Positions 1,575 to 24,234 of a stretch of 64,000 bases of DNA are shown here, one piece after another. The stretch spans positions 2,523-66,522 of the forward strand of contig JAYUFZ010000016.1 in assembly GCA_043767845.1 (NCBI GenBank), read 5' to 3'. The number at the start of each line of letters is the position of its first letter. Position 1 is the first letter of the stretch. The notes beneath the pieces are model-generated. The model worked only from the letters and a program-made list of their open reading frames with translations. It was not told the origin of the DNA and searched no databases. Source of the stretch: a bacterium (GTDB lineage: Bacteria; Patescibacteriota; Saccharimonadia; UBA4664; JBBRNT01). A program made the translations under genes and the position numbers.

Positions 1575-2381
1575 ATGAGTGACAACGCAATTGATGAGGT
1601 GGTTGCCATCGATGGCCCGGCTGGCGTCGGCAAGTCTACAGCGGCGGCCGCGGTAGCGCTGCGACTCGGCTGGCTGTTTGTTAACACCGGATCGCTGTAT
1701 CGGACAGTGGTGGTAATGGCTGGTATCCACTCCATTCCACTTGATGATGAGACGGCGTTGGTCGAACTGATATTGGCCCATAGAATCACCATTCCTGGGC
1801 CAAACAGGGTTCGCGTACACAACGCTGAGTATTCCGAGCAGATTCGAGCCCCAGAGATCAGCATGCAGACGCCACTCGTAGCCAGACTGCCCAAGGTCAG
1901 GCAGGCGATCACCGAGCTGACCAAGCAGATGGTCGCTGATGCTCCTGGTGCTGTGCTTGAAGGCCGTGATATAGGCACGGTGGTCTTTCCGAACGCCAGA
2001 TACAAGTTCTGGTTGATGGCTGATGTGGCAATGCGTGAAGAGCGCATCCGGCTGATGCAGATGGAGCGAGGCGTTCCTGCCGATCAGTTGGCTGCTCAAA
2101 CCGAGGAGATCTTGGAGCGCGACCGAATTGACGCGCAGCGAACAACGTCGCCGATGAAGAAGGCTGATGGTGCGATTGCGATTGATTCGTCGCATTTATC
2201 GAAGGAAGAGGTCGTGGCGCACATCTGTTTGGTAGTCCAGGCCGAGTCTGATCCGGTTCAGCTGTTGCGAGCTGATGCCCTGCCGGTGCAAATTGCTCGA
2301 AACACTCCCCGGGGGCCAATATACTGGCTTGATGCCAATAATAAGCCGCTGCGCATGTTTCACCCACAGCCCGATAAGTAG
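1575..2381 (+). CDS. cmk: cytidylate kinase
   Basis: VVAIDGPAGVGKST P-loop and NTGSLYR motif typical of Cmk. C-terminal ~45 aa extension. Confidence 0.85.
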   Translation: MSDNAIDEVVAIDGPAGVGKSTAAAAVALRLGWLFVNTGSLYRTVVVMAGIHSIPLDDETALVELILAHRITIPGPNRVRVHNAEYSEQIRAPEISMQTPLVARLPKVRQAITELTKQMVADAPGAVLEGRDIGTVVFPNARYKFWLMADVAMREERIRLMQMERGVPADQLAAQTEEILERDRIDAQRTTSPMKKADGAIAIDSSHLSKEEVVAHICLVVQAESDPVQLLRADALPVQIARNTPRGPIYWLDANNKPLRMFHPQPDK

Positions 2382-2413
2382 TTCACCCGCCCCAAGCTAA
2401 GCTTGGGGTTTGT

Positions 2414-2854
2414 TTATTTGCGAGGTAACCTGGGGTGACTCAGCACGTTGAGTAGCAATGGGCTTTGGTGCTCGGGTAGAAAGTCGGGGTGGAACCATTT
2501 GGCGTCGCGCAGCTCCATGTGGTCGACGCGAATTTGGCGTTTGGTGGCTTTGGCCAGGTAAACGTGATTGCCAGGGCGGCCGAAATTATTCGTATTCTCG
2601 ATATAGCCAAGCTCGTCGTGGATCTCAACCGAGAGGCGTAGCTCCTCGAATACTTCACGTAGGGCGGCCGACTTGGGGTCTTCGCCGTCGTCAATGCCGC
2701 CGCCAGGCAGCGACCAATGCCCGAAGCCAACCCAATTGCGCACCAGTAGGATGTGCTCGTCGTGGGTTATCAGGATATTGGCGCCCTTGGTGGGTTTGCC
2801 AAGGCGGATAGGGTAGTGTTTGGAGATCTCTTTGTCGGTCACGTTGGAGCTCAT
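2414..2854 (-). CDS. NUDIX hydrolase
   Basis: Nudix box GGGIDDGEDPKSAALREVFEELRL (GX5EX7REUXEEXGU). Confidence 0.8.
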   Translation of the reverse strand: MSSNVTDKEISKHYPIRLGKPTKGANILITHDEHILLVRNWVGFGHWSLPGGGIDDGEDPKSAALREVFEELRLSVEIHDELGYIENTNNFGRPGNHVYLAKATKRQIRVDHMELRDAKWFHPDFLPEHQSPLLLNVLSHPRLPRK

Positions 2855-3790
2855 TTAGCTTGATAGATTGGCTTTGGGGTAGGAGCCGAAGATTGTGACC
2901 TGGCAATTCTGGGTTTTCAGGATTTCGAGCGCTCTACTAAGGCTAGTATCCCCGATGCCAGCTTCAACGTCTAGGTAAAAGGTGTAATGCCAGGCGTCGG
3001 TGGGAATGGGTCGGGAGTGTAGCATGGTCATATTCATACCGAGATCGGAGAAGGCGGCCAAGGCAGAGACTAGTGAGCCGGGCGTGTGATCAGTCACCAG
3101 AGCAAGCGAGGTCTTTGTGGCTTGGCTAAGGTTGGCGGGGCGCTGCGCGTCGAGGCGGATGAAGCGAGTGTAGTTGCGGTGATGGTCCTCGATATCGGCG
3201 GCTAATATTGGGAGCTGGTGCAGATCGGCGGCTGCCTTGGATGCGATGGCGGCTTTAGCGGGGTCGTTCCAGCTTTTGACCAAGGCCACGCTGCCGGCAG
3301 TATCAGACTCCTCGATTAATTTGGCGTGGGGCAAATGTTGTTCTAGCCAGGCTCGGCATTGGCCGAGGGCGGGGGCTTGGGAGTGAACTTCATTGATCTG
3401 TGATAGCTCACTACTGGGGAGCCCGATGAGCTGGTGGTGGATCTCTAGATATACTTCGCCGGCCACCCAGGCGTGCTGTTCGCTGAGTAGGTCGTAGGTG
3501 TCGTTGATGGTGCCGTAGAGTGAGTTCTCGATGGCCACTACGGCGTGGTCGGCCTGGCCACTTGAAACTGCCTTGAAGGCGGCAGTAAAGTTAGGGCAGC
3601 CAATAAGCTCAACATCTGAGCCAAAGAGTCGCGTGGCAGCCTCGGCGTGAAATGAACCTTCTTGGCCTTGGATAGCAATTTTTGTTTTTATCATGACCGC
3701 TAGCTTAGCAATTTTGAGGATGACAATCAAGGAAGGCCCGTATGCTGCTTCATAGAGCATAAGCGTTTGAAAAAGGTCTGATCTTTTCAT
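2855..3790 (-). CDS. pheA: prephenate dehydratase (PDT domain + C-terminal ACT domain)
   Basis: KIAIQGQEGSFHAEAA … VAIENSLYGTINDTYDLL match the PDT family; ACT-like C-terminus. Probable true start at Met 3694 (MIKTKIAIQG). The first 32 codons of the ORF-track start are encoded by the 3770-3812 palindrome and are likely not translated. Confidence 0.7.
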   Translation of the reverse strand: MKRSDLFQTLMLYEAAYGPSLIVILKIAKLAVMIKTKIAIQGQEGSFHAEAATRLFGSDVELIGCPNFTAAFKAVSSGQADHAVVAIENSLYGTINDTYDLLSEQHAWVAGEVYLEIHHQLIGLPSSELSQINEVHSQAPALGQCRAWLEQHLPHAKLIEESDTAGSVALVKSWNDPAKAAIASKAAADLHQLPILAADIEDHHRNYTRFIRLDAQRPANLSQATKTSLALVTDHTPGSLVSALAAFSDLGMNMTMLHSRPIPTDAWHYTFYLDVEAGIGDTSLSRALEILKTQNCQVTIFGSYPKANLSS

Positions 3791-6334: not shown

Positions 6335-6982
6335 ATGAAAAAACAAGCAACCAAGCCTTCCGCAAAACCTACTGCCAAAGCAGTCACAAAACCTATTCCA
6401 AATAGAGCTACCACAGCAGGTACGCAGGCACTTCAAAGGAACTGGAAATTACTTATCAGTGCAGCAGTAGGGCTTGTAGCATTGTTGGTTATAACCGCAG
6501 CTTACTCACATAAGGCCACAGCGCCGGCATCGCTCGTAGCTTGCACCTCGAACTTGGCGGGCGACGTAAACCAAGTCGAATACAGCTATAGCGGAGGGTC
6601 AACCCCGCCACCTTACGGATACGTTTACCATATTGCACTCAACTGCAACGGATCTGTATTCAATATGGAAGATACTGCCAACAAACCGCTTTACCATACG
6701 ACAGGAAAGAATGATGCCGCTTCCCAGCAGATTATTGCGGCCTTGGCCATGGACTTAGCGGACCGCCGTAAAAGCGAGGTAAAGCCTGACGCGCTCGATT
6801 GCACGACTACTGTTGGTGGCCCATGGGCTTCAATTGTTCTTACGCATTCTGATACTGCCAAAACTAAATACACGATTGATCTGTGCTTATTTAAGGGCGA
6901 TGAGCGTACGGCTGCACTTGTAGACCAAATCAAGGCGCTAATTCCAGATCTCGATAGTATTGTAGCCAGCCACCACAAATAG
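6335..6982 (+). CDS. hypothetical membrane-anchored protein (Lys-rich N-terminus, one TM)
   Basis: ORF with signal-anchor. No recognised motif. Confidence 0.4.
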   Translation: MKKQATKPSAKPTAKAVTKPIPNRATTAGTQALQRNWKLLISAAVGLVALLVITAAYSHKATAPASLVACTSNLAGDVNQVEYSYSGGSTPPPYGYVYHIALNCNGSVFNMEDTANKPLYHTTGKNDAASQQIIAALAMDLADRRKSEVKPDALDCTTTVGGPWASIVLTHSDTAKTKYTIDLCLFKGDERTAALVDQIKALIPDLDSIVASHHK

Positions 6983-6989
6983 CCTGCTC

Positions 6990-7048
6990 TTGACGCCCAA
7001 AAATCATAACGCTAGGATAAATTAGCACTCAGCATAATAGAGTGCTAA
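6990..7048 (+). promoter_or_regulatory. groES promoter (TTGACG-17-TAGGAT) followed by perfect CIRCE operator TTAGCACTC-N9-GAGTGCTAA (7022-7048)
   Basis: Exact CIRCE consensus (HrcA operator) read directly, 38 nt upstream of groES start. Confidence 0.9.
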
Positions 7049-7085
7049 TATTGATGTATAGAGTTTGAATAATAAGGAGGCTTAC

Positions 7086-7358
7086 ATGAAATTGCAGCCA
7101 CTCGCAGACCGGATTATAGCCACGCCAGTCGAAGCGGAAGCTAAGAGCGCTTCTGGTATTTTGTTGCCAGAAAGCGCCAAAGAAAAACCACAGATCGCCG
7201 AAGTTATCGCTGTTGGCGCTGATGTGAAAGAGATCAAGGTCGGCGATAAGGTCGTTTACTCCGAGAATTACGACCATCGCCCGGAGACTTTGAAAGTCGA
7301 TGGCAAGGACCTTTTGATTATGAAAGAGAAAAGTATTTTAGCAGTGGTAAAGGGGTAA
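7086..7358 (+). CDS. groES: co-chaperonin GroES
   Basis: MKLQPLADRIIATPVEAEAKSASGILLPESAKEKPQ. AAGGAGG RBS at 7073-7079. Confidence 0.95.
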   Translation: MKLQPLADRIIATPVEAEAKSASGILLPESAKEKPQIAEVIAVGADVKEIKVGDKVVYSENYDHRPETLKVDGKDLLIMKEKSILAVVKG

Positions 7359-16326: not shown

Positions 16327-16671
16327 ATGCACAATCAAAAATTACTCACCCAAGTTTCGTTCTGTATGTTATTAGCCCTGAGCCTCAAGCCGCGGCACGG
16401 CTATGAACTGATGAAACAGATCGAGGTCGATTCCGGAGGCCGGATTAAGCTCGGCCCTGGCGCCCTCTACGGCAATATTAAAGAACTAAGGCAAGCTGGC
16501 CTTATCGAAGAGCTATCCGCCACCACCAGCGAGCAACGCCGCCGCTACTACCAACTAACGGCCAAAGGGCGCGGCCGGCTGCAGCAAGAAATTACTTACT
16601 TCCGGGAAACAGTCAAAATTGCCGAGCAGAGGAATCTGATAATTAAAACAAATGAAGGGACCGTCTCGTGA
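16327..16671 (+). CDS. PadR-family transcriptional regulator
   Basis: LKPRHGYELMKQIEVDSGGRIKLGPGALYGNIKELRQAGLIEE winged-helix PadR pattern. ATATCA-N5-TGATAT palindrome in upstream region. Confidence 0.75.
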   Translation: MHNQKLLTQVSFCMLLALSLKPRHGYELMKQIEVDSGGRIKLGPGALYGNIKELRQAGLIEELSATTSEQRRRYYQLTAKGRGRLQQEITYFRETVKIAEQRNLIIKTNEGTVS

Positions 16672-17717
16672 AAAACCTATCAAAAAGTCTAGGAATCTAT
16701 GAAAGCTTGCTGGATTTGTACCCCGCCAGTTTCAAGCGCCAGTATGGATCGCAGATGATCGAGGCGGCCGATGATATGATCTCCGATGCCGCCGGCATAG
16801 ATCGCATCGGAGTAATGATCAAACTCTACGCCGAGCTACCGGCTAGTATCGCTTACCAAAGGCTGATAGCTGATGGTACACAGATCGCCCGGCGGCCAAG
16901 GCAGGTCGTGCGCCGGATAGTAATTACTAGCTTGGTTGTGCTCACGCCATTCTTTGCCGTGCCAGTTTTCGGCTACTTCCATTTTCACGATGCTTACTTC
17001 CAGCTCTCGGTCGACCGAAACTTCAGCCTGATCTGGCAATTGGCCTTGCCGCTGATCACCGTTTATCTTATAGCCAAGCACCTGATAGGCTGGTCGTTGT
17101 ACTTGAGATCCAAGAGCGGCCGGAGTAATGCCTGGATCAAGAAAGCCTGGCCGCTGGTGGCAGTCGGGTTGATGGCTGTGCCGCTGAGCCTGCTAGCGAT
17201 CTCGACGCTCTATTCCCCAAGCGAGAATCGCTCGATCGTCGCCTCGGCTGTCGCCCAAGCTACCTCTCCCAGTCACGCTTGCCAGGCCTTTCCTTTAGAG
17301 TCAGCAAAGAAGCTACTGGGCAGCAAAGCGGTAATGAATAATGCCCGGCAGTATGGGTCAGGGGAGATTCGTTACGATGGAATATTAAGCGATACACCCG
17401 ATGAAATAGTCAGCAGTTGTAGCTATGCCATCGGATTTGCCTCGCTGATTATCCAGGTCTCAGATCCGAAGAACAGTGCCGCCCAGACTGCTCAGAGGCG
17501 AGATTTCTTCACCAATCTTGCTGCAGTAGAAGAGCCTATCAGGGTCAGCGGTTACGATGGCTTCTACACCGATCCAACGGATAAAAACAAAGCTAGCAAC
17601 AATTCTAATCAACTAACTGAATTGCGGCTGTGGGCCAAGGGGCGCTGGGTTGAGGTAAGCGCCTCGAGTTTAGAAATGGCTATAGGCGCGATCAATGTAG
17701 TTATAAATAATCTCTAA
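16668..17717 (+). CDS. membrane protein co-transcribed with PadR (hypothetical)
   Basis: Overlaps padR stop. Multiple TM segments. Confidence 0.45.
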   Translation: MKNLSKSLGIYESLLDLYPASFKRQYGSQMIEAADDMISDAAGIDRIGVMIKLYAELPASIAYQRLIADGTQIARRPRQVVRRIVITSLVVLTPFFAVPVFGYFHFHDAYFQLSVDRNFSLIWQLALPLITVYLIAKHLIGWSLYLRSKSGRSNAWIKKAWPLVAVGLMAVPLSLLAISTLYSPSENRSIVASAVAQATSPSHACQAFPLESAKKLLGSKAVMNNARQYGSGEIRYDGILSDTPDEIVSSCSYAIGFASLIIQVSDPKNSAAQTAQRRDFFTNLAAVEEPIRVSGYDGFYTDPTDKNKASNNSNQLTELRLWAKGRWVEVSASSLEMAIGAINVVINNL

Positions 17718-17737
17718 AAAGTAAAACCGCCAGGGCG

Positions 17738-17782
17738 GAGCCGAACTTTGAGGGTTCGGTCCGCGGCTGGCGGCGGGTGGTC
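17738..17782. repeat. 45-nt GC-rich nested hairpin CCGCCAGGGCGGAGCCGAACTTTGAGGGTTCGG…CTGGCGG, second copy at 22455-22505
   Basis: Two about 85% identical copies, each directly 3' of a minus-strand stop codon (VWA gene; lipoprotein gene). Confidence 0.6.
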
Positions 17783-17786
17783 TTGG

Positions 17787-19214
17787 CTAGTGTTGGATAC
17801 GCAAGTTGTTGCGCGCATCAGCCCACAGCTCGATGTAGGTCTTGGAGCAGCTGCGCAAGGATTGGTTTGAGCCGTTGAAGATGACGGTGTGTAGGATGAC
17901 ATCACCGGCTAGGGCGGCTCGGATGGCCGCGCTGTCTTCGACGCCTTGGCCGTCGGTCATGAGTAGCACCTCGGGCACATCATCGGCGGTTTGGACCAAG
18001 TCGCGAATTTCGCTGGCCGCTACCCTTACGGCTTTCAAGATTTCCGTTCCGCCTTCGAGTAGCTGGGGTTCGGCAAAATGGGTTATGAGGCCCATTTTGC
18101 CAGCGCTGTCGTGAGCCTCGATCCGTGAACCAAGGCTTTGGGTGAAGGGGCGGTAGAGGTAGCGCGAGCCGTCGGCCAAGTGGCAGCCAACGACCACGGA
18201 GGCCAGGGCGATCTCGGCGGGGAGCCGTCTTGGATCGCAATCGAATCCGCCCGAGGTGTAGGTCGAGGGGCTCCAGTCCATGAGGATGTAGAGCACCTGC
18301 CCCTTTTTCTCGTCCGGGACGCGAACCTTTTTGGGAACCATGATGGTTTCCTCGTAGGGCTCTTGGACGGTTCTCGGTTCCTGGACGACGACCTCTTTTG
18401 GGACGGGCACTTGCTCGTAGTAGTCGTTGACCTGGATCTCACGCTCGACGACCCGCTTGGCCCAGACCTCCACGGGGAGGGCCAGAATGCTTGGATCGAG
18501 TCGGTTGATCTCGCTGAAGCCGCGGATGGGCCGGGAGACGGCATCATCGGTCGGGAACTGGACTTCCTGGCGCTCGGTTCCCTCAACCACTTTGACGACG
18601 TCTTTTTGGACGACGATTGATCGATACTTGGTGATGGTCTTGGGGACCTGGATGATGACCTCCTTGGTCAAGTCCGGGTTCAGCTTGTTGAAGTAGTCGA
18701 TCACCGGGATCCCTGGCAAATTGTTGATTTGCTCGATGAACCGGGCGATCAACTCGTGGTCAGGTCGGACCAATAGCTCGCCAATAGTCGCTCCGCTCAT
18801 AGCTGATAGTGATTGCACGAATTCACTCGTACCGCTATCCATGCGGCCTGGCATTGGCGGGCCGCTGTGTGCCAGCGTACTGCCTCCGCCCGGTTGCTTG
18901 CCACCAGAGTTGCCTCCCGAGAAGTCGGGGTGCTCAACCAGGGGCTTGAACTTCACGAAGTGTGCTAACCTAGACCGCAGCCTCTCTTGGGGAGAGACAT
19001 TGGTGTGAGTGGTGACATCGAAGATCGTGCCACCCATATGGTGCTTATCGCGCAGTTCGGCTTCGGCCTCCTCGTAGGTCTTGAAAAAACCAACTGGTTT
19101 GGCGCGCTTGTCGAAGAGGGCGAAAGGCCCACCGCTGCGCATTGTCGGCCAGGGTTTTTTGACGACCCATTTGGCAATACGCAGTGGACGCCCAAGCTTT
19201 TGGATGACAGTCAT
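17787..19214 (-). CDS. VWA-domain protein (C-terminal von Willebrand A domain with MIDAS DWSPS), partner of the AAA+ ATPase
   Basis: VLYILMDWSPSTYTSGG… DxSxS MIDAS. 4-nt gap to upstream AAA gene. Confidence 0.65.
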   Translation of the reverse strand: MTVIQKLGRPLRIAKWVVKKPWPTMRSGGPFALFDKRAKPVGFFKTYEEAEAELRDKHHMGGTIFDVTTHTNVSPQERLRSRLAHFVKFKPLVEHPDFSGGNSGGKQPGGGSTLAHSGPPMPGRMDSGTSEFVQSLSAMSGATIGELLVRPDHELIARFIEQINNLPGIPVIDYFNKLNPDLTKEVIIQVPKTITKYRSIVVQKDVVKVVEGTERQEVQFPTDDAVSRPIRGFSEINRLDPSILALPVEVWAKRVVEREIQVNDYYEQVPVPKEVVVQEPRTVQEPYEETIMVPKKVRVPDEKKGQVLYILMDWSPSTYTSGGFDCDPRRLPAEIALASVVVGCHLADGSRYLYRPFTQSLGSRIEAHDSAGKMGLITHFAEPQLLEGGTEILKAVRVAASEIRDLVQTADDVPEVLLMTDGQGVEDSAAIRAALAGDVILHTVIFNGSNQSLRSCSKTYIELWADARNNLRIQH

Positions 19215-19217
19215 TGC

Positions 19218-20486
19218 TTAGCCCTGCCAATCGTGGCTGAGCGACAGCGAGGTGGGGCTGACCGGAGCATCAATCTTCTCCACTTCGATGCGAAGTTGAG
19301 CGATGATGGCCTGGACGGTGGCGTGCGAGCTGTGGCGCTTGGCCAGGAATTCTTTCATTCCTAACACGCTCGCGGTCGGAATACGCGCGCCTACCATATT
19401 GGCCAGGTGGCCATTCTGCGGCGCTTCGATACGCATCACCCGCATATCTTGAGTGAGATCTCCCAGCCTCTCGATATTCCTTAGGTCCTTCTCGGTGGTC
19501 GGGATACATTCGGCGCAGACCTCGTCCCAGAGCTGTTCGAGCGCCGGGTTGGCGCCAAGGGTCAGGACGCCATACTTATAGGCGCCAATGTCCCTGGGCA
19601 CGACCGCGCTACGTCCACGGAGGACGGCCACGGCTCGGCTGAGATCGAACTCACGGTTCTCTGTGCGCTGGGAAAGCGGGGGTACAGCGCTGGCCAACTC
19701 TTCGGCCGTGGGATCACGGCGCATTTTTTTGGCCAACTGCTCGTGACAGAGTATCTGGCGGCGCTTCTCAAACTCGGCAAGCACGTAGGCATGCAGCAGC
19801 AGAAAGCCGTTGCTGATCTGGATACCACCCTCAGAAGGTTTCCTAGAAACCTGGTCGGCCATTTCAGCCAGCCCGCCATAGTCGAGGCTTGGCAATTGTC
19901 CGACCCGCTCTTCGAGGTAGGAGTCGTACATGCCAAACTTCTCGGTGTAGTCGCTGAGCTTCGGCGAAAAGGCCTTGATCAAGAAACGGTCCAGCACAGC
20001 CGCGAGGGCCTGGGTGGCGCGATTGAAGTTGGTTGTGGCGATGACGCTGTGCAGCGGGATGTGCTGCAGCGAATCGTCTTTCGACATATAGGACCGCTCG
20101 TTGAGGGCATTGAGCAAACCGCCGCGCAGGACCATGTCCGGTCCATCGAGCAGCTCGTCGAGGAAGGCAAAGATAGCCGTAAGCAGGCCACCTTCTTTGT
20201 TCCTGATATTTCGGCCTTCGGTGATGATCTTATTGATGATCAGGTTGCCGAAGAGGTCGTCGAGGATTGTTTCTTGGGAGATGCTCTTCTTGAAGATGGG
20301 CGCGCCGTGGAACATGCCGAAGGTCGACATGGCAAACTGGCTCTTGCCTGAACCTGGGAGACCGATCAACAGGACGTGCTCACGGGTCAATAGTCCCAAA
20401 AGCGTACCCTCAATGATGGTGTCATAGCCAGGAAAAGCTTTCTCGAGTTCGGCGAAAGCTGCCAACAGTTCGTCGCAGTAACTCAT
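19218..20486 (-). CDS. MoxR/CbbQ-like AAA+ ATPase (AAA_5-type)
   Basis: Walker A GLPGSGKS, Walker B AIFAFLDE, sensor-1 ATTN, arginine finger LDRF. Confidence 0.7.
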   Translation of the reverse strand: MSYCDELLAAFAELEKAFPGYDTIIEGTLLGLLTREHVLLIGLPGSGKSQFAMSTFGMFHGAPIFKKSISQETILDDLFGNLIINKIITEGRNIRNKEGGLLTAIFAFLDELLDGPDMVLRGGLLNALNERSYMSKDDSLQHIPLHSVIATTNFNRATQALAAVLDRFLIKAFSPKLSDYTEKFGMYDSYLEERVGQLPSLDYGGLAEMADQVSRKPSEGGIQISNGFLLLHAYVLAEFEKRRQILCHEQLAKKMRRDPTAEELASAVPPLSQRTENREFDLSRAVAVLRGRSAVVPRDIGAYKYGVLTLGANPALEQLWDEVCAECIPTTEKDLRNIERLGDLTQDMRVMRIEAPQNGHLANMVGARIPTASVLGMKEFLAKRHSSHATVQAIIAQLRIEVEKIDAPVSPTSLSLSHDWQG

Positions 20487-20510
20487 TGGTGTCCTTTTGT
20501 TGTAGGTGCT

Positions 20511-20550
20511 AGCGAGTCGGTCGCCAGGGCCGTGAGGTAGATTACCCTCA
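20511..20550 (-). promoter_or_regulatory. shared leader motif: palindrome AGCGAGTC-GG-TCGC plus 22-nt GCCGTGAGGTAGATTACCCTCA (identical at 22304-22325)
   Basis: Same motifs at the same distance (about 25-65 nt) upstream of the flotillin start. Palindrome alone also at 23809-23825 upstream of the LemA-like gene. Confidence 0.5.
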
Positions 20551-20640
20551 TAGATATGCTCAATTGCTAAATTGAGCGCATGTATGAGGCCTGGGGCAGC
20601 CCCCGTAGCTTGTGGCTACGAGGGCTGGGTCTCCCCAGGG

Positions 20641-20865
20641 TTAGTGGATGTTGAACTTGGAGACGTACAGGGTTCGGGGAGGAGATACCTCGATTATTAC
20701 GACCTGTGAGTCTTTCTCGATAACCTCCTGACCGTCGTAGGGGTGGGCCAGGTAGTGCTCGCTACCACCTCGAATTGAGACGACAACTTCACCTGTTGTG
20801 TTTGGCCCGACTAAGCCCGTAACTCGGCCTGTCTTGCCGACGAGGCTGCTATCAGACGTTGTCAT
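20641..20865 (-). CDS. NfeD-like C-terminal OB-fold small protein (74 aa)
   Basis: MTTSDSSLVGKTGRVTGLVGPNTTGEVVVSIRGG…VVIIEV resembles the NfeD/YuaF beta-barrel. ATG overlaps the flotillin stop. Lies in the same frame as a spurious 356-aa ORF. Confidence 0.45.
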   Translation of the reverse strand: MTTSDSSLVGKTGRVTGLVGPNTTGEVVVSIRGGSEHYLAHPYDGQEVIEKDSQVVIIEVSPPRTLYVSKFNIH

Positions 20866-22258
20866 CTGCGTTGTCGGTTGAGCTGTCGGTGTCGGCCGGC
20901 TGTTCAGGGGTTGCCGGAGCGGTCGGTTCGACACTGGTGATTGTCGCTGGGGCGGCTGCCGGGGCACTGTTCTGAGCGAACATACTCTTAGCAAAATTGA
21001 AGCTGTTGAGTGCGGTGCCAACGACCTGCATGAGTGCAGCGTTGACGCCTTCGGCGCCGTTGAGGACGGTGAAGTTGTCGACGTGCTCAAAAGCTCCTGC
21101 CGCAGCCGCAACAATCTCTGGCCACTGCTTGGCCAGCTCTTGCATGATGACTGCTTCGGAGTTAGCGGCCAGGGCTTCGGCACGTGCCTGGATAGCTGCA
21201 CCTTCGGCCTTGCCCCTGGCTTCGATAGCCGCGGCTTCAGCCTTGCCCTTGATTTCGATAGCCGCTGCCTCAGCCCTGGCCTCCAGCTCAACTTTCTGAG
21301 CCTGGCCTTCGGCCTGGAGGACGGCGACACGGCTGGTTGCTTCTGCCGAAGCAATGTCGGCATCACGTTTCGCTTCGGCCGGTCGAATGACTGTTGCGAC
21401 CAGGATTTGCTCCTGGCGGGCTGCTTCGAGCCGGGCGGCGGAGGTCTCTTGCTCAACGACGGCTTGGCGGGCTGATGCTTGGGCCAGAGGTCCGGCTTGG
21501 GCGCTTTCAGCATTGGCCTTGTCGACCTCTGCTTGGAAGCCAGCTTCTTTGATCGAGGCGTTGCGTTCAGCTTCGGCCTTGAGGGCATTGGCTTCTTGCT
21601 CACGTTCGGTGGCTTCACGGTCGGCACTGGCCTGCGCGATTCGGGCGAGACTCTGGACGGCCGCGGTATGCGGCATGGCCAGATTCTTGATGTAGCCGCT
21701 GGGGTCATCAATCTCCTGGATTTGGAGTGAATCGACTATGAGGCCGAGCTTGGCCATCTCTTCGCCTGATGACGCGCGCGTCTTGGCAGTGAGCTGTTCG
21801 CGCTCGCGGATCATGGCCTCAACGGTCATGCTGCCGACGATGGAGCGAAGGTGGCCTGCGAAAACGTTATGGACGCGGGCGTCCATTTGGTCTTGCTGGT
21901 CTAGGAAGCGTCGCGCGGCGTTGGTGATGCTAGCGCTGTCGTCGCCGATCTTGTAGATGACCGTGCCCTTGACCTGGACGGGGATGCCTTGTTCGGTCGG
22001 GCACTCCACATAGAGGTCGGCTTGGTGCAGTTGCAGCGAGAGGCGCCGAACCTTCTGGACACCAGGCATCACAAGGGTGCCTTTGCCGGTGACGATTCTA
22101 AAGCCCATGTGATCGCCTGCTGTGTCGGTGGCTTCACCCTTGTCATTGAGGCCTGAGATTATCAGTGCCTCGTTTGGCTCGGCGACGCGCCATGTTGCCT
22201 TAAAGAGCACGATGGGTACGATGATCGCCGCAGCGATAATGCCTAGTAGCACGTACAT
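20852..22258 (-). CDS. flotillin/SPFH (band-7) domain protein with Ala/Glu-rich coiled-coil repeats
   Basis: N-terminal TM, SPFH core, long EA-repeat region (AEAERNASIKEAGFQAEVDKANAE…). Start taken at MYVLLGIIAAAIIV. Confidence 0.75.
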   Translation of the reverse strand: MYVLLGIIAAAIIVPIVLFKATWRVAEPNEALIISGLNDKGEATDTAGDHMGFRIVTGKGTLVMPGVQKVRRLSLQLHQADLYVECPTEQGIPVQVKGTVIYKIGDDSASITNAARRFLDQQDQMDARVHNVFAGHLRSIVGSMTVEAMIREREQLTAKTRASSGEEMAKLGLIVDSLQIQEIDDPSGYIKNLAMPHTAAVQSLARIAQASADREATEREQEANALKAEAERNASIKEAGFQAEVDKANAESAQAGPLAQASARQAVVEQETSAARLEAARQEQILVATVIRPAEAKRDADIASAEATSRVAVLQAEGQAQKVELEARAEAAAIEIKGKAEAAAIEARGKAEGAAIQARAEALAANSEAVIMQELAKQWPEIVAAAAGAFEHVDNFTVLNGAEGVNAALMQVVGTALNSFNFAKSMFAQNSAPAAAPATITSVEPTAPATPEQPADTDSSTDNADDNV

Positions 22259-22286
22259 ATACTTCCTTCTGTTGTCGGTGGTACTC

Positions 22287-22325
22287 AGCGAATCGTTCGC
22301 TGCGCCGTGAGGTAGATTACCCTCA
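22287..22325 (-). promoter_or_regulatory. leader motif copy 2 (CAGCGAATCGTTCGCTG + GCCGTGAGGTAGATTACCCTCA) upstream of flotillin
   Basis: See 20511-20550. Confidence 0.5.
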
Positions 22326-22532
22326 ATACCGTGCTTTACTTTATATAAAGAAGGGGCAGGAGAGTCCATGAAGCTTTCATGGAAATAGATCAGTTACAAT
22401 AACTTTATTTGGGCAAATTGTCAATACTTTTTGACGTTTGTTTAGGGGTTGGGCCAGGGCGGAGCCGAACTTTGTGGGTTCGACCCCGCCGACTGGCGAA
22501 GGGTGGATGTTACTTAAGGGCCTCCTTAGGGA

Positions 22533-23204
22533 CTAGCCTTTCGTGGTAGGCGTTGCGGCTGGTGGGGCATCATGTGAGACCTTGATCCCGCCATCGGCAG
22601 TCGAATTGACTGCTCCGGCAGTGACGCTAGGCTTGGCGCTGGCTGCATCGTAAACGATGAGCGGCTTGGTGATGAGGTTTTGTGGTGAATCGGACTCTAG
22701 GTAGAGGCCATTCCACTTGATCTCGACACCTTCGGTGGTGAAGAAACCAATGCCGTCAGGTTCTGGACCCCAGGTACCATTGTCGCCAGGCGATTTAGTA
22801 GCTACTGCGTTGCCGCAGCTGCTACCGCAGTCGCTGTAGTTGATCTTATCCTCGACGGTCAGCTGGCTGTTAAGCGAGAAGACCATTCCTTGGATGGGGT
22901 ACTGGATGATCGGCTGCCCGACGTTGTTCATCAAGATGACGTAAGCCAGACGGTTGCGATCGTTCTGCCGGAGCAGGTTCTCGGTGAGCAGTGTACGCTC
23001 CAGCCAACCGCCTTTGACCATTGCCGCCAGGGGATATGGTGCGCCCCGTTCGGCAGACTGCTGATAGGTCTCGACGACGTTCTCACTTTGGGTCTGGCTG
23101 TCGGCTTCGGTTGGGCCTGTTTGGGTGCAGGCCGTTACGGTAACGGCAACAGCTACAACCGCGGCGATGATGCGGATGGGTCGGGGGATACTCGTGAATT
23201 TCAT
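22533..23204 (-). CDS. secreted lipoprotein, hypothetical
   Basis: Start at MKFTSIPRPIRIIAAVVAVAVTVTAC (lipobox-like …TAC). AGGAA RBS. Confidence 0.5.
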   Translation of the reverse strand: MKFTSIPRPIRIIAAVVAVAVTVTACTQTGPTEADSQTQSENVVETYQQSAERGAPYPLAAMVKGGWLERTLLTENLLRQNDRNRLAYVILMNNVGQPIIQYPIQGMVFSLNSQLTVEDKINYSDCGSSCGNAVATKSPGDNGTWGPEPDGIGFFTTEGVEIKWNGLYLESDSPQNLITKPLIVYDAASAKPSVTAGAVNSTADGGIKVSHDAPPAATPTTKG

Positions 23205-23218
23205 GATGGTTACGTTCC

Positions 23219-23782
23219 TTACTTGGAGGTGGTGGGGAGGCAGTCGAAGGCGGCGAAGTCTTCCTGGCCGCTGGTGAAGACCTGGTCGTTGGACCGGATC
23301 TTGTAGGGTAGGTCGGCGTCGCGGAAGTCGCGGGCCGTGTACTGCTCGGTGCTGGCGTCGTAGCGAGCTACAACGTTGCGGCACTGCTGCTGGATTCCGT
23401 TGACCGAGGTCTGCAGATTGCTCTGCTGTTCGGCCATCGGGTCGAAGGCCGTACCATTGCCAACATTGGGGTGAGCTGCGTTGAAGCTATTCAGCGCGGC
23501 AGAGGCATCATCCAGTTTGAGGTCGAGTGCGCGGACCGATTCGAAATCGCTGTGGAACTGAGCTTGCGACTGGATGCGGTTGACGGCACTGTTCTTGATG
23601 ACTGCGGCATCGCCTTTGCCCTTGATATTGCTGGTGCTAACCCGCAGCTGCCATGCCACAACGGGCACGATTACGGCGAGCAGAAGCACAACTACCAGGG
23701 TGACGACTGCCCAACGCCGGCCGGTACTTACGATCTCGCGATCGTTCATATCGACAAAGTTTCCATCACTGTCGTATTTCAT
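23219..23782 (-). CDS. membrane-anchored protein, LemA-like (weak)
   Basis: N-terminal TM. C-terminal RNVVARYDASTEQYTARDF resembles the LemA R..VAR.DYN..V..YN signature. Confidence 0.35.
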   Translation of the reverse strand: MKYDSDGNFVDMNDREIVSTGRRWAVVTLVVVLLLAVIVPVVAWQLRVSTSNIKGKGDAAVIKNSAVNRIQSQAQFHSDFESVRALDLKLDDASAALNSFNAAHPNVGNGTAFDPMAEQQSNLQTSVNGIQQQCRNVVARYDASTEQYTARDFRDADLPYKIRSNDQVFTSGQEDFAAFDCLPTTSK

Positions 23783-24144
23783 GAAGTTTCCTTAAGTTTT
23801 GGGGTACAAAGCGAATCAGTCGCTTAACTGCGGAGGAGGTTGCTCCCCCGTCGCCGGGATGAATTCAAGTTTCCCGGCGATAGGAGAGTAAGTAAGCAAG
23901 GGACAAAAAAAGCCCCGAGACACTGGCCGGGGTTTAGGCTAACCGCCGGGGTCAAAGGGACATTGTCGATACCGATAGCTTATTTAATTGTAAAGTCATT
24001 ATAGGACATACATTTGAGTTTGTCAATACCCCTAAACATGGCTCTGGAAAGCTAAGATAATATTCTGCCCTCGATTGGTGACAGAATTTGGGGGCTCTAG
24101 AATTGCCTTAGAAGGCCAAATCGGCTACACTAAACTTCGTCTTT

Positions 24145-24234
24145 GGAGAGGTCGCATAGTGGCCTAGTGCACCGCCTTGGAAAGGCGGCACGGGAGCAAT
24201 CTCGTCGAGAGTTCGAATCTCTCCCTCTCCGCCA
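24145..24234 (+). tRNA. tRNA-Ser (anticodon GGA), CCA encoded
   Basis: GGAGAGG acceptor, anticodon loop TTGGAAA, long variable arm, T-arm GAGTTCGAATCTC, 3' CCTCTCC-G-CCA. Confidence 0.9.

Follow-up and report, generated by a model that had tools for sequence, protein, structure and literature searches.

Whether neighbouring membrane-related genes are controlled together, and at which level, is the question raised by a locus in a 64-kb stretch of the Saccharimonadia contig JAYUFZ010000016.1 (hereafter the window, whose own coordinates are used throughout). Three gene pairs lie there in a row on the minus strand, encoding a membrane protein and a lipoprotein (genes A and B), a flotillin and an NfeD-like partner (C and D), and a MoxR-type ATPase and a VWA protein (E and F), and each pair is preceded by a leader of related layout. 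A first-pass annotation of the window had joined the three pairs into one regulatory unit on account of repeated leader motifs and 3′ hairpins. The shared elements are non-random and are kept in a second genome; that they make the pairs one unit is a proposal built on cis-elements and on one lineage, for which co-regulation at the RNA level is plausible.

The six genes are arranged as follows; the start of gene D overlaps the end of gene C by 14 nt, and gene F begins 4 nt past the stop codon of gene E.

23219..23782, minus strand: gene A, 187 aa, membrane protein with one transmembrane helix
22533..23204, minus strand: gene B, 223 aa, lipoprotein with lipobox VTAC, constant partner of A
20852..22258, minus strand: gene C, 468 aa, flotillin (SPFH/Band_7 + Flot)
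20641..20865, minus strand: gene D, 74 aa, NfeD/YqiJ-like OB-fold protein
19218..20486, minus strand: gene E, 422 aa, MoxR-type AAA+ ATPase of the bpMoxR clade
17787..19214, minus strand: gene F, 475 aa, VWA protein

Repeated elements in the window and in a related genome

A 22-nt stretch had been described as identical before genes C and E and as lying at the same distance from both start codons. The 22-mer GCCGTGAGGTAGATTACCCTCA, which reads UGAGGGUAAUCUACCUCACGGC on the coding (minus) strand, does occur exactly twice, at 20529-20550 and 22304-22325, and no further copy within 3 mismatches is present in the 64-kb window, with 0 matches in 100 shuffles; its distances to the respective ATGs, 43 and 46 nt, are similar rather than identical. 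The palindrome reported before all three operons is also there: its GCGA-N5-TCGC core occurs five times in 64 kb against 1.7 expected, and three of the five sites (23811-23823, 22288-22300, and 20512-20524) lie 25–29 nt upstream of the A, C, and E start codons. The near-identical 3′ hairpins noted after the VWA and lipoprotein genes could likewise be recovered, with one 30-nt half (17729-17758 and 22453-22482) being 97% identical and unique to both sites, and with similarity spanning ~55 nt overall.

A relative of gene E led to L002, a 181-kb contig of a ‘Candidatus Saccharimonadia’ metagenome-assembled genome, in which the order tRNA-Ser, A, B, flotillin, 72-aa D, E, and F is identical and the leader architecture is kept as well. 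Protein identity between the window and L002 is ~45% for F, 50% for E, 68% for A, and 74% for C. The six-gene combination has so far been seen only in these two Saccharimonadia genomes of the candidate phyla radiation, and the present claim is limited to them. In L002, gene A (~6560-7116) is interrupted by a frameshift where five G residues follow one another (GGGGG), which places its N-terminal 40 codons (VKYDDKGNF...) out of frame with the called 138-aa product and is either an assembly error or a sign of a pseudogene.

The similarity of the leaders was tested by local alignment of the 120 nt before each start, the leaders of the window being named wL1 to wL3 and those of L002 rL1 to rL3. 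Leaders L2 and L3 resemble each other strongly in the window (wL2–wL3, z=22.5) and in L002 (rL2–rL3, z=8.7), and wL1 resembles wL2 (z=5.9). The orthologous leaders, in contrast, have no sequence similarity between the two genomes (z=0.4 for L2 and z=0.0 for L3). As L2 and L3 are alike within a genome and unlike their orthologues, they evolve in concert within each genome, and something keeps the two copies matched. The L1 leader behaves differently, being ~77% identical to its L002 counterpart overall and ~90% identical in its 3′ half, compared with 45–74% for the proteins.

Architecture of the leaders

The elements of the three leaders in the window are given below in the order in which they would be transcribed; S1, S2, and S3 denote strands with alternative partners, H1 and H2 denote hairpins, and SD denotes the Shine–Dalgarno sequence.

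23783..23888, minus strand: leader L1 end module
23888-23882: L1 S1, CUCUCCU
23880-23851: L1 inner hairpin with GAAUUC loop
23849-23843: L1 S2, GGGGGAG
23839-23832: L1 S3, CCUCCUCC
23825-23809: L1 H2, AAGCGA-cugau-UCGCUU
23807-23803: L1 GUACC box
23793-23788: L1 SD, AAGGAA
22259..22364, minus strand: leader L2
22364-22358: L2 S1, CUCUCCU
22325-22308: L2 H1, UGAGG-guaaucua-CCUCA
22307-22304: L2 CGGC
22302-22286: L2 H2, CAGCGAA-cga-UUCGCUG
22284-22280: L2 GUACC
22269-22262: L2 SD
20487..20589, minus strand: leader L3, without a promoter
20589-20584: L3 S1, CCUCAU
20577-20558: L3 inner hairpin, GCUCAAUU-uagc-AAUUGAGC
20551-20546: L3 S2, AUGAGG, inside H1
20550-20533: L3 H1, UGAGG-guaaucua-CCUCA
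20532-20529: L3 CGGC
20527-20509: L3 H2, CUGGCGA-ccgac-UCGCUAG
20508-20505: L3 CACC box
20496-20492: L3 SD

All six leaders of the window and L002 share one layout, in which H1 (GAGG...CCUC) is followed by a CGGC-like spacer, H2, a GUACC, CACC, or AUCC box, a CA-rich stretch, the SD, and the start codon. In L002, H2-like hairpins with G-U pairs and one compensatory change are found in all three leaders, and H1-like hairpins (GAGG...CCUC) stand before L2 and L3, with a GGGGGAG...CUCC pairing as their equivalent in L1. Within the window, the succession of a hairpin, GUACC, an SD, and a start codon occurs at L1 and L2 only.

These shared sequences could nevertheless be without regulatory meaning, the L2/L3 resemblance and the 3′ hairpins being local duplications or gene-conversion tracts, the hairpins ordinary terminators or stabilisers, and the pairs neighbours through insertion of acquired genes by A-B followed by inherited synteny. 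Such an origin would fit the finding of each pair alone elsewhere, the synteny of the two genomes across the whole region (tRNA-Ser, A-B, ABC/FtsX, and Cu-oxidase_4), the lack of conservation of the orthologous L2 and L3 sequences, the dissimilarity in L002 of the two 3′ hairpins that match in the window, and the apparent horizontal acquisition of the flotillin. It accounts poorly for the fact that both genomes independently hold L2 and L3 near-identical while drifting apart from each other, that H1, CGGC, H2, the box, and the SD are kept at fixed distances from the start codon in six of six leaders, and that H2 and GUACC are conserved, with a covarying stem, in distant A-B leaders; a non-functional origin is thus considered unlikely, if still worth weighing. 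The matching 3′ hairpins were also considered as a cassette-insertion scar or an integron attC site, and this was rejected, since the insertion predates the split from L002 and the hairpins of L002 are unalike; no integrase was found among the flanking genes scanned.

Hairpin H2 as a probable RNA element

The A-B pair occurs in further loci, named by their numbers here, and the ends of its leaders there consist of a hairpin of 7 bp whose loop has 5 nt, a single nucleotide, GUACC, and 12–22 nt to the start codon. The stems of these hairpins differ completely (AAGCGA/UCGCUU, GCAACGA/UCGUUGC, ACUAGUG/CACUAGU, and GCUAGUG/CACUAGC). Eight distinct leaders, five of which are A-B leaders from other genomes, were aligned by hand and their base pairs counted, in place of a covariance model, as MAFFT alignments lost the hairpin register. 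The H2 stem is paired in 53 of 56 cells, compared with 15–18 of 56 when the partner strand is slid by one position, and each stem position shows two to four pair types across the eight leaders. The loop reads CNGAY in 6/8, and in all eight H2 stands directly 5′ of GUACC (or CACC/AUCC), 12–22 nt before the start codon. L017 and L010 likewise have the L1 stem and inner hairpin, with altered stem sequence. Pattern scans with the L1 stem-loop returned only the genome of L002 in the genome collection and gave no match in the metagenomes.

The same palindrome (AGCGA-N5-TCGCT) could in principle be a DNA operator through which a dimeric transcription factor represses all three units. It is dyad-symmetric, present in three copies, and enriched in the window; it is retained, with symmetric changes, in L1 of L002; and a PadR-family regulator is encoded nearby (16327-16671). 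However, the stems of the A-B leaders, which would be the half-sites, change fully (AGCGA, AACGA, CUAGUG) while the loop, which would be the spacer, is conserved, the opposite of what an operator would show, and in wL3 and rL2 the symmetry is lost at the DNA level through G-U pairs. The sites also lie 110–200 nt downstream of promoters, L3 has no promoter, and in L010 the PadR gene accompanies the ABC/FtsX genes, so that an operator is regarded as highly unlikely. Because the stem varies, the loop is conserved, G-U pairs occur, and the position is tied to the start codon (H2 ends 25–29 nt before the ATG, with promoters ~140 and 220 nt upstream or absent) and not to the promoter, an RNA hairpin is the best reading of the palindrome. 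Whether the motif would prove an RNA structure or a protein operator in relatives had been left to such a comparison, which favours RNA for H2 and offers little for H1. The H2/GUACC end module appears to be ancestral to the A-B leader in Saccharimonadia, with copies preceding the flotillin and MoxR genes.

Possible alternative pairings near the ribosome-binding site

Upstream of H1, every leader contains an inner hairpin and a strand resembling CCUC (S1), so that the GAGG strand (S2) has two possible partners, S1 on its upstream side and S3 on its downstream side. Minimum-energy folds form S1:S2 in wL3, rL2, rL3, and the L1 leader of L017, and H1 in wL1 and wL2. As S2 has two possible partners and the predicted folds are split between both, the leaders may constitute a bistable element. 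Simple sequestration of the SD by the CCUC strand was not adopted, with only 3–4 bp available to the AAGGA-type sites.

The same strands might instead belong to an upstream open reading frame (uORF) opened by the 22-mer (AUG/UUG-AGG...), in which translation, or stalling at the rare AGR second codon, would unfold H1/H2, and termination–reinitiation would bring ribosomes to the main start, making these leader-peptide elements rather than pure RNA switches. Three of the four L2/L3 copies have AUGAGG and the remaining one has UUGAGG; AAUGAGAGG is found in the A-B leaders of L010 and L017; and in six of six leaders the AUG shares its frame with the CUC of CCUC, with loop lengths differing by multiples of 3. 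In the window, a possible 22-codon frame in L3 begins at 20551 and closes with a UGA that overlaps the AUG of gene E, and the L3 frame of L002 ends with UAA 2 nt before the start of E; of all Arg codons here, AGA (3.9%) and AGG (8.1%) are used least often. On the other hand, the L1 leaders of both genomes have no such frame, and the L2 frames disagree, the one in the window having a UUG start and a stop 30 nt before the ATG and the one in L002 being an in-frame fusion with the flotillin. The peptides are not conserved between the genomes, a consistent SD before the AUG is absent, and the changes between the A-B leaders of L014 and L016 compensate the RNA stem without being synonymous. A uORF is therefore judged decidedly unlikely, and the pairing of the strands as RNA is preferred.

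A further candidate, the 22-mer as a −10 promoter element (TAATCT), was suggested by actinobacterial flotillins, which are preceded by TATGCT-CGCCTCAC, and was rejected because the L002 copies lack TANNNT and no −35 element fits. An antisense partner of the 22-mer was also looked for, and no complementary stretch of at least 9 nt is present elsewhere in the window.

Transcription units and the attenuator-like start of the A-B leader

The features that delimit the transcripts are as follows.

23998..24026, minus strand: promoter P1, TTGACA-17-TATAAT, 12/12 match
23905..23991, minus strand: attenuator-like start of the A-B leader, with the conserved single-stranded segment UACAAUUAAAUAAGCUAUCGGUAUCGA at its 5′ end, then a covarying hairpin and a run of U7
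22453..22497, minus strand: GC-rich long hairpin after B, U-tract absent, ~86% identical to the hairpin after F
22396..22424, minus strand: promoter P2, TTGACA-17-TATTGT, 10/12 match
20590..20639, minus strand: GC-rich long hairpin after D, −38.6 kcal/mol, U-tract absent
17716..17774, minus strand: intrinsic terminator after F, nested hairpin followed by GGUUUUACUUUUU

The window contains nine perfect TTGACA-N17-TANNNT sites against 0.33 expected; canonical sigma-70-type promoters are therefore used by this organism and can be read directly from its genome sequence. L002, L010, and seven metagenome loci share P1, and P2 has a counterpart at the equivalent place in L002 (TTGACC-17-TATTAA). The promoter scan found no comparable sigma-70-type site before gene E. 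The hairpin after F (−32.8 kcal/mol, fold z=−5.5) is followed by the U-tract GGUUUUACUUUUU, and L002 has an orthologous hairpin and U-tract at the equivalent place. A stable hairpin joined to a U-tract is also found inside the A-B leader; the hairpin after B (−36.2 kcal/mol, fold z=−3.8) and that after D have no U-tract and are probably partial terminators or 3′-end stabilisers, so that among the 3′ hairpins only the one after the VWA gene is a full terminator. Where three operons had been described, the two promoters (24026-23998 and 22424-22396), the absence of one before the AAA+ gene, and the U-less hairpins after B and D indicate that there are probably two transcription units, the leader with A-B and C-D-E-F, with possible read-through between them. 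A tRNA-Ser(GGA) gene (24145-24234, plus strand) adjoins P1 in divergent orientation; the tRNA gene also adjoins the A-B leader in L002, in L010 (where its orientation is that of A-B), and in L017.

Full A-B leaders are 220–500 nt long, the promoter being followed by an attenuator-like element of ~90 nt. From P1 to gene A, the leader has three parts: a 30-nt single-stranded segment (consensus UACARUUUAAUAAGCUAUMGGUAUCGAMAA), a covarying hairpin with a U7 run, and a stem enclosing the hairpin with the GAAUUC loop. The first two parts lie upstream of A-B in ten loci, namely the window (23905-24026, minus strand, promoter included), L002 (6305-6432), L010 (9803-9925), L017 (218-296), and six metagenome loci (L014–L016 and L018–L020), and a metagenome pattern scan with the 5′ segment matched 7 loci; in the loci with these parts, the complete leader extends to 350–500 nt. 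L011, L012/13, and L009 have different sequences upstream of A-B. In Rfam 15, only the tRNA-Ser was matched in the window and the related loci, and the leaders found no match even at E<=10. The start of the A-B leader looks like a transcription attenuator, judging by its hairpin and U-run. L018 additionally contains two type III hammerhead-like matches (2330-2384, plus strand, and 3641-3700, minus strand), one of which, at 44.6 bits, is slightly below the Rfam gathering score of 48.5.

A role in trans for the terminated 5′ part, as a small RNA acting on the three leaders, was rejected: the RNAduplex energies were −9 to −16 kcal/mol, compared with a background of −13.7 +/- 3.2 kcal/mol for 90 other start regions. 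A free-standing small RNA gene beside the tRNA-Ser is not favoured either, as the element precedes A-B in ten of ten loci and no promoter was found between it and gene A. The attenuator-like element could also yield a short RNA.

Protein families

Gene C encodes a flotillin, matching PF01145 (Band_7) at 90.3 bits (cut-off 23.6) and PF15975 (Flot) at 29.9 bits (cut-off 27), with a hydrophobic N-terminus (MYVLLGIIAAAIIVPIVLF, read from the sequence). The NfeD assignment of D is sub-threshold, at 20.6 bits on PF01957 against a cut-off of 29.1; a 72-aa counterpart follows the flotillin in L002, L006, and L008, those of L006 and L008 score 22 bits on NfeD and 18–21 bits on YqiJ_OB, also sub-threshold, and such NfeD/YqiJ OB matches are found in three of four D orthologues. 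D, with its 74 residues, has neither the membrane segment usual in NfeD proteins nor a protease domain, such as the ClpP-like one that some of them carry. Gene E is of the MoxR class, with its best score on PF20030 (bpMoxR, 82.6 bits, cut-off 27), a match to AAA_5 (37.5 bits, cut-off 22), a weak RavA match, and intact Walker A (GLPGSGKS) and Walker B (FLDE, in FAFLDEL) motifs; only two relatives above 30% identity were found among 5.8 billion proteins, and a phage search with E returned distant ATPases only.

Gene F itself matches no Pfam model. Its family comprises 76 related clusters in a full HMMER scan, VWA_2 is matched by 20 of 24 aligned members, and the MIDAS residues D313, S315, S317 (D-x-S-x-S), T390, and D421 are invariant in all 24; a profile of the family matches the VWA domain of CLCA1 in the PDB (2.7e-10), and no known domain was found in the N-terminal 300 residues. 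B is a lipoprotein by its signal peptide and lipobox (MKFTSIPRPIRIIAAVVAVAVTVTAC, read from the translation; consensus [LVI][ASTVI][GAS]C), with ...LGLSACS or ...LGACS in the corresponding regions of its homologues, and has no Pfam family. The calls of flotillin, MoxR-type AAA+, VWA, and lipoprotein made in the first pass were thus borne out, that of NfeD only below threshold, and ‘LemA-like’ for gene A was not.

Gene A resembles the LemA family (PF04011) in its N-terminal membrane helix and in the helical domain that follows outside the cytoplasm, which in A has three helices and two invariant Cys residues. It differs in its own invariant motifs (NRxxAQAxxH, VGNG, QQQC, and DFDC) and its constant lipoprotein partner, and LemA identity is not supported: Pfam, NCBIfam, and PHROG gave no match, a profile search against PDB sequences gave nothing relevant, and Foldseek returned syntaxin-like helical bundles at a best E-value of 0.29, for a model with a mean pLDDT of 64, and not the LemA helical bundle (PDB 2ETD).

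The E-F pair has also been considered as the core of a MoxR-vWA conflict system for defence or threat sensing, with the flotillin and A-B as its membrane sensors or effectors. MoxR-vWA-beta-propeller ternary systems have as their third component a beta-propeller/TPR protein with a variable N-terminus and act near the membrane (Kaur, Burroughs, Iyer, and Aravind 2020, PMC7159879), the MoxR domain of E scores best on the Pfam family defined on them, and related modules of Actinobacteria sense Patescibacteria (bioRxiv 10.64898/2026.09.08.750141). The locus differs from them in lacking the third component and any effector domain in it or beside it: Pfam scans of the six genes and eight flanking genes found no beta-propeller/TPR protein, and such a third gene is absent also in L002, L021, and L022. 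A known defence system is likewise rejected, with PADLOC models giving one marginal hit and no convincing match, and in L021 and L022 the relatives are simple pairs of genes surrounded by housekeeping genes. A conflict system is accordingly held to be extremely unlikely.

Gene neighbourhoods

About ten homologues of gene A were found, and A-B stands without flotillin or MoxR genes in L010, L011, L012/13, L009, L017, and the six metagenome loci, the Saccharimonadia-like ones among these numbering at least 10. The chromosomal neighbours of L010 are those of L002. In L009, the pair (2107-3332, A at 56% identity) lies on a GC-rich, phage-like contig rich in small ORFs, which also holds Dam-type methyltransferases, an Ead/Ea22-like gene, and a LexA-type repressor; as it sits on such a contig, A-B may be mobile or phage-borne.

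Besides the L002 copy, the nearest relatives of the flotillin are proteins of Acidimicrobiia/Ilumatobacteraceae at 70–75% identity, accompanied by the 72-aa partner alone and with upstream regions that lack the leader motif. Because this identity is about the same as that to the L002 copy (74%), horizontal transfer of the flotillin between these epibionts and Actinobacteria is suggested. Actinobacteria are the phylum that includes the known hosts of Saccharibacteria.

A neighbourhood check proposed for recurrent linkage of MoxR-VWA pairs to flotillins did not find it, as the pairs of L021 and L022 stand alone and the six-gene set recurs in L002 only. In L022, from another small-genome bacterium, an F homologue is paired with a bpMoxR gene under its own promoter, without flotillin; L021 has a distant bpMoxR gene with a VWA_CoxE partner, also without flotillin. 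In this region of L022 (8520-8667), the promoter (TTGACA-17-TATTGT) has the −10 hexamer of P2 in the window, and the leader has a short hairpin, a U-run, and a CA-rich tract, without H1, H2, or GUACC. Between F and the ABC/FtsX genes of the window lie the PadR-family gene and an unannotated 349-aa gene (16327-17717, plus strand), both absent from that place in L002.

Proposed co-regulation of the three gene pairs

The reading favoured here, to which about even chances are given, has the leaders acting in cis, on the mRNA, and tuning all three gene pairs together. P1 would drive a long leader with an intrinsic terminator and then A-B, and P2 would drive flotillin-NfeD-MoxR-VWA. By switching between alternative pairings, the leaders would set translation initiation, processing, or stability of the next gene, and the three pairs would be tuned together post-transcriptionally, in a manner particular to this lineage.

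Several observations weigh against this. Covariation of H1 and of S1/S2/S3 is thin, because only two genomes carry L2 and L3, and the complementary strands are short, the CCUC strand forming just 3–4 bp with a weak AAGGA-type SD. Fold z-scores of the short leaders are modest in the window (−1.7 to −2.2) and null for L2 and L3 of L002 (+0.5), and the H2 hairpins were chosen by eye, which inflates their paired fraction. Similarity is not significant for wL1–wL3 (z=1.8), for rL1–rL2 and rL1–rL3, or for L2 and L3 against the A-B leaders of L010 and L017. As the whole region is syntenic between both genomes, the kept gene order is weak evidence of shared function and may reflect regional synteny only, and, as each is found alone in other loci, A-B, flotillin-NfeD, and MoxR-VWA are separable units.

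A more ambitious proposal is that the A-B leader, with its attenuator and end module, represents a cis-regulatory RNA of a new, signal-sensing class in Saccharimonadia, whose end module was copied, in one lineage, onto horizontally acquired flotillin-NfeD and MoxR-VWA genes to create an RNA-controlled envelope regulon, and that the MoxR-VWA pair works on the flotillin scaffold or on an A-B surface complex, possibly tied to an epibiotic lifestyle on Actinobacteria. In its entirety, this proposal is decidedly unlikely.

Comparison with known systems and significance

The literature searched contains no paper that mentions MoxR, flotillin, and vWA together, in agreement with the first-pass view that the combination is not a described system. 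The proteins are nevertheless of known kinds. E and F resemble MoxR-VWA pairs of the RavA-ViaA or CoxD-CoxE type in combining a MoxR-class AAA+ protein (PF20030/AAA_5, Walker A/B) with a VWA protein that has a complete MIDAS and lies within 4 nt; they differ in belonging to a family that is very rare, with 3 close relatives of E and 76 clusters of F among billions of proteins, and in standing behind flotillin-NfeD, apparently on one transcript. C and D resemble the flotillin-NfeD operons of B. subtilis (yuaF-floT) and E. coli (yqiJK), with an SPFH/Band_7+Flot protein and an overlapping NfeD/YqiJ-type OB partner, and differ in that D lies downstream of the flotillin and is a 74-aa OB domain alone, that their leader is related to that of the neighbouring operon, and that MoxR-VWA follows. 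The leaders themselves match no described RNA family. They are like structured 5′ leaders such as attenuators, riboswitch expression platforms, and RNA thermometers in having a strong promoter and a conserved leader with an intrinsic terminator before A-B, GAGG/CCUC strands with two possible partners beside the ribosome-binding site, and a covarying stem with a conserved loop; unlike them, they have no Rfam match, and a single locus employs the end module three times, one of these between cistrons.

The main interest of the locus lies in what may be a regulatory RNA of Saccharimonadia, put to further use on acquired genes; the ‘membrane module’ itself is of lesser interest. To our knowledge, bacteria of the candidate phyla radiation have few recognisable regulators, and the control of their envelope genes is almost unstudied. 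The 70–75% identity of the flotillin to Acidimicrobiia proteins points to gene exchange between epibionts and Actinobacteria. Conserved before A-B in at least ten Saccharimonadia-like loci and without an Rfam match, the A-B leader is a concrete candidate for a new cis-regulatory RNA, and the reuse of its end module, if true, would hint at a client or context for the MoxR-VWA pair, a long-standing gap for this family.

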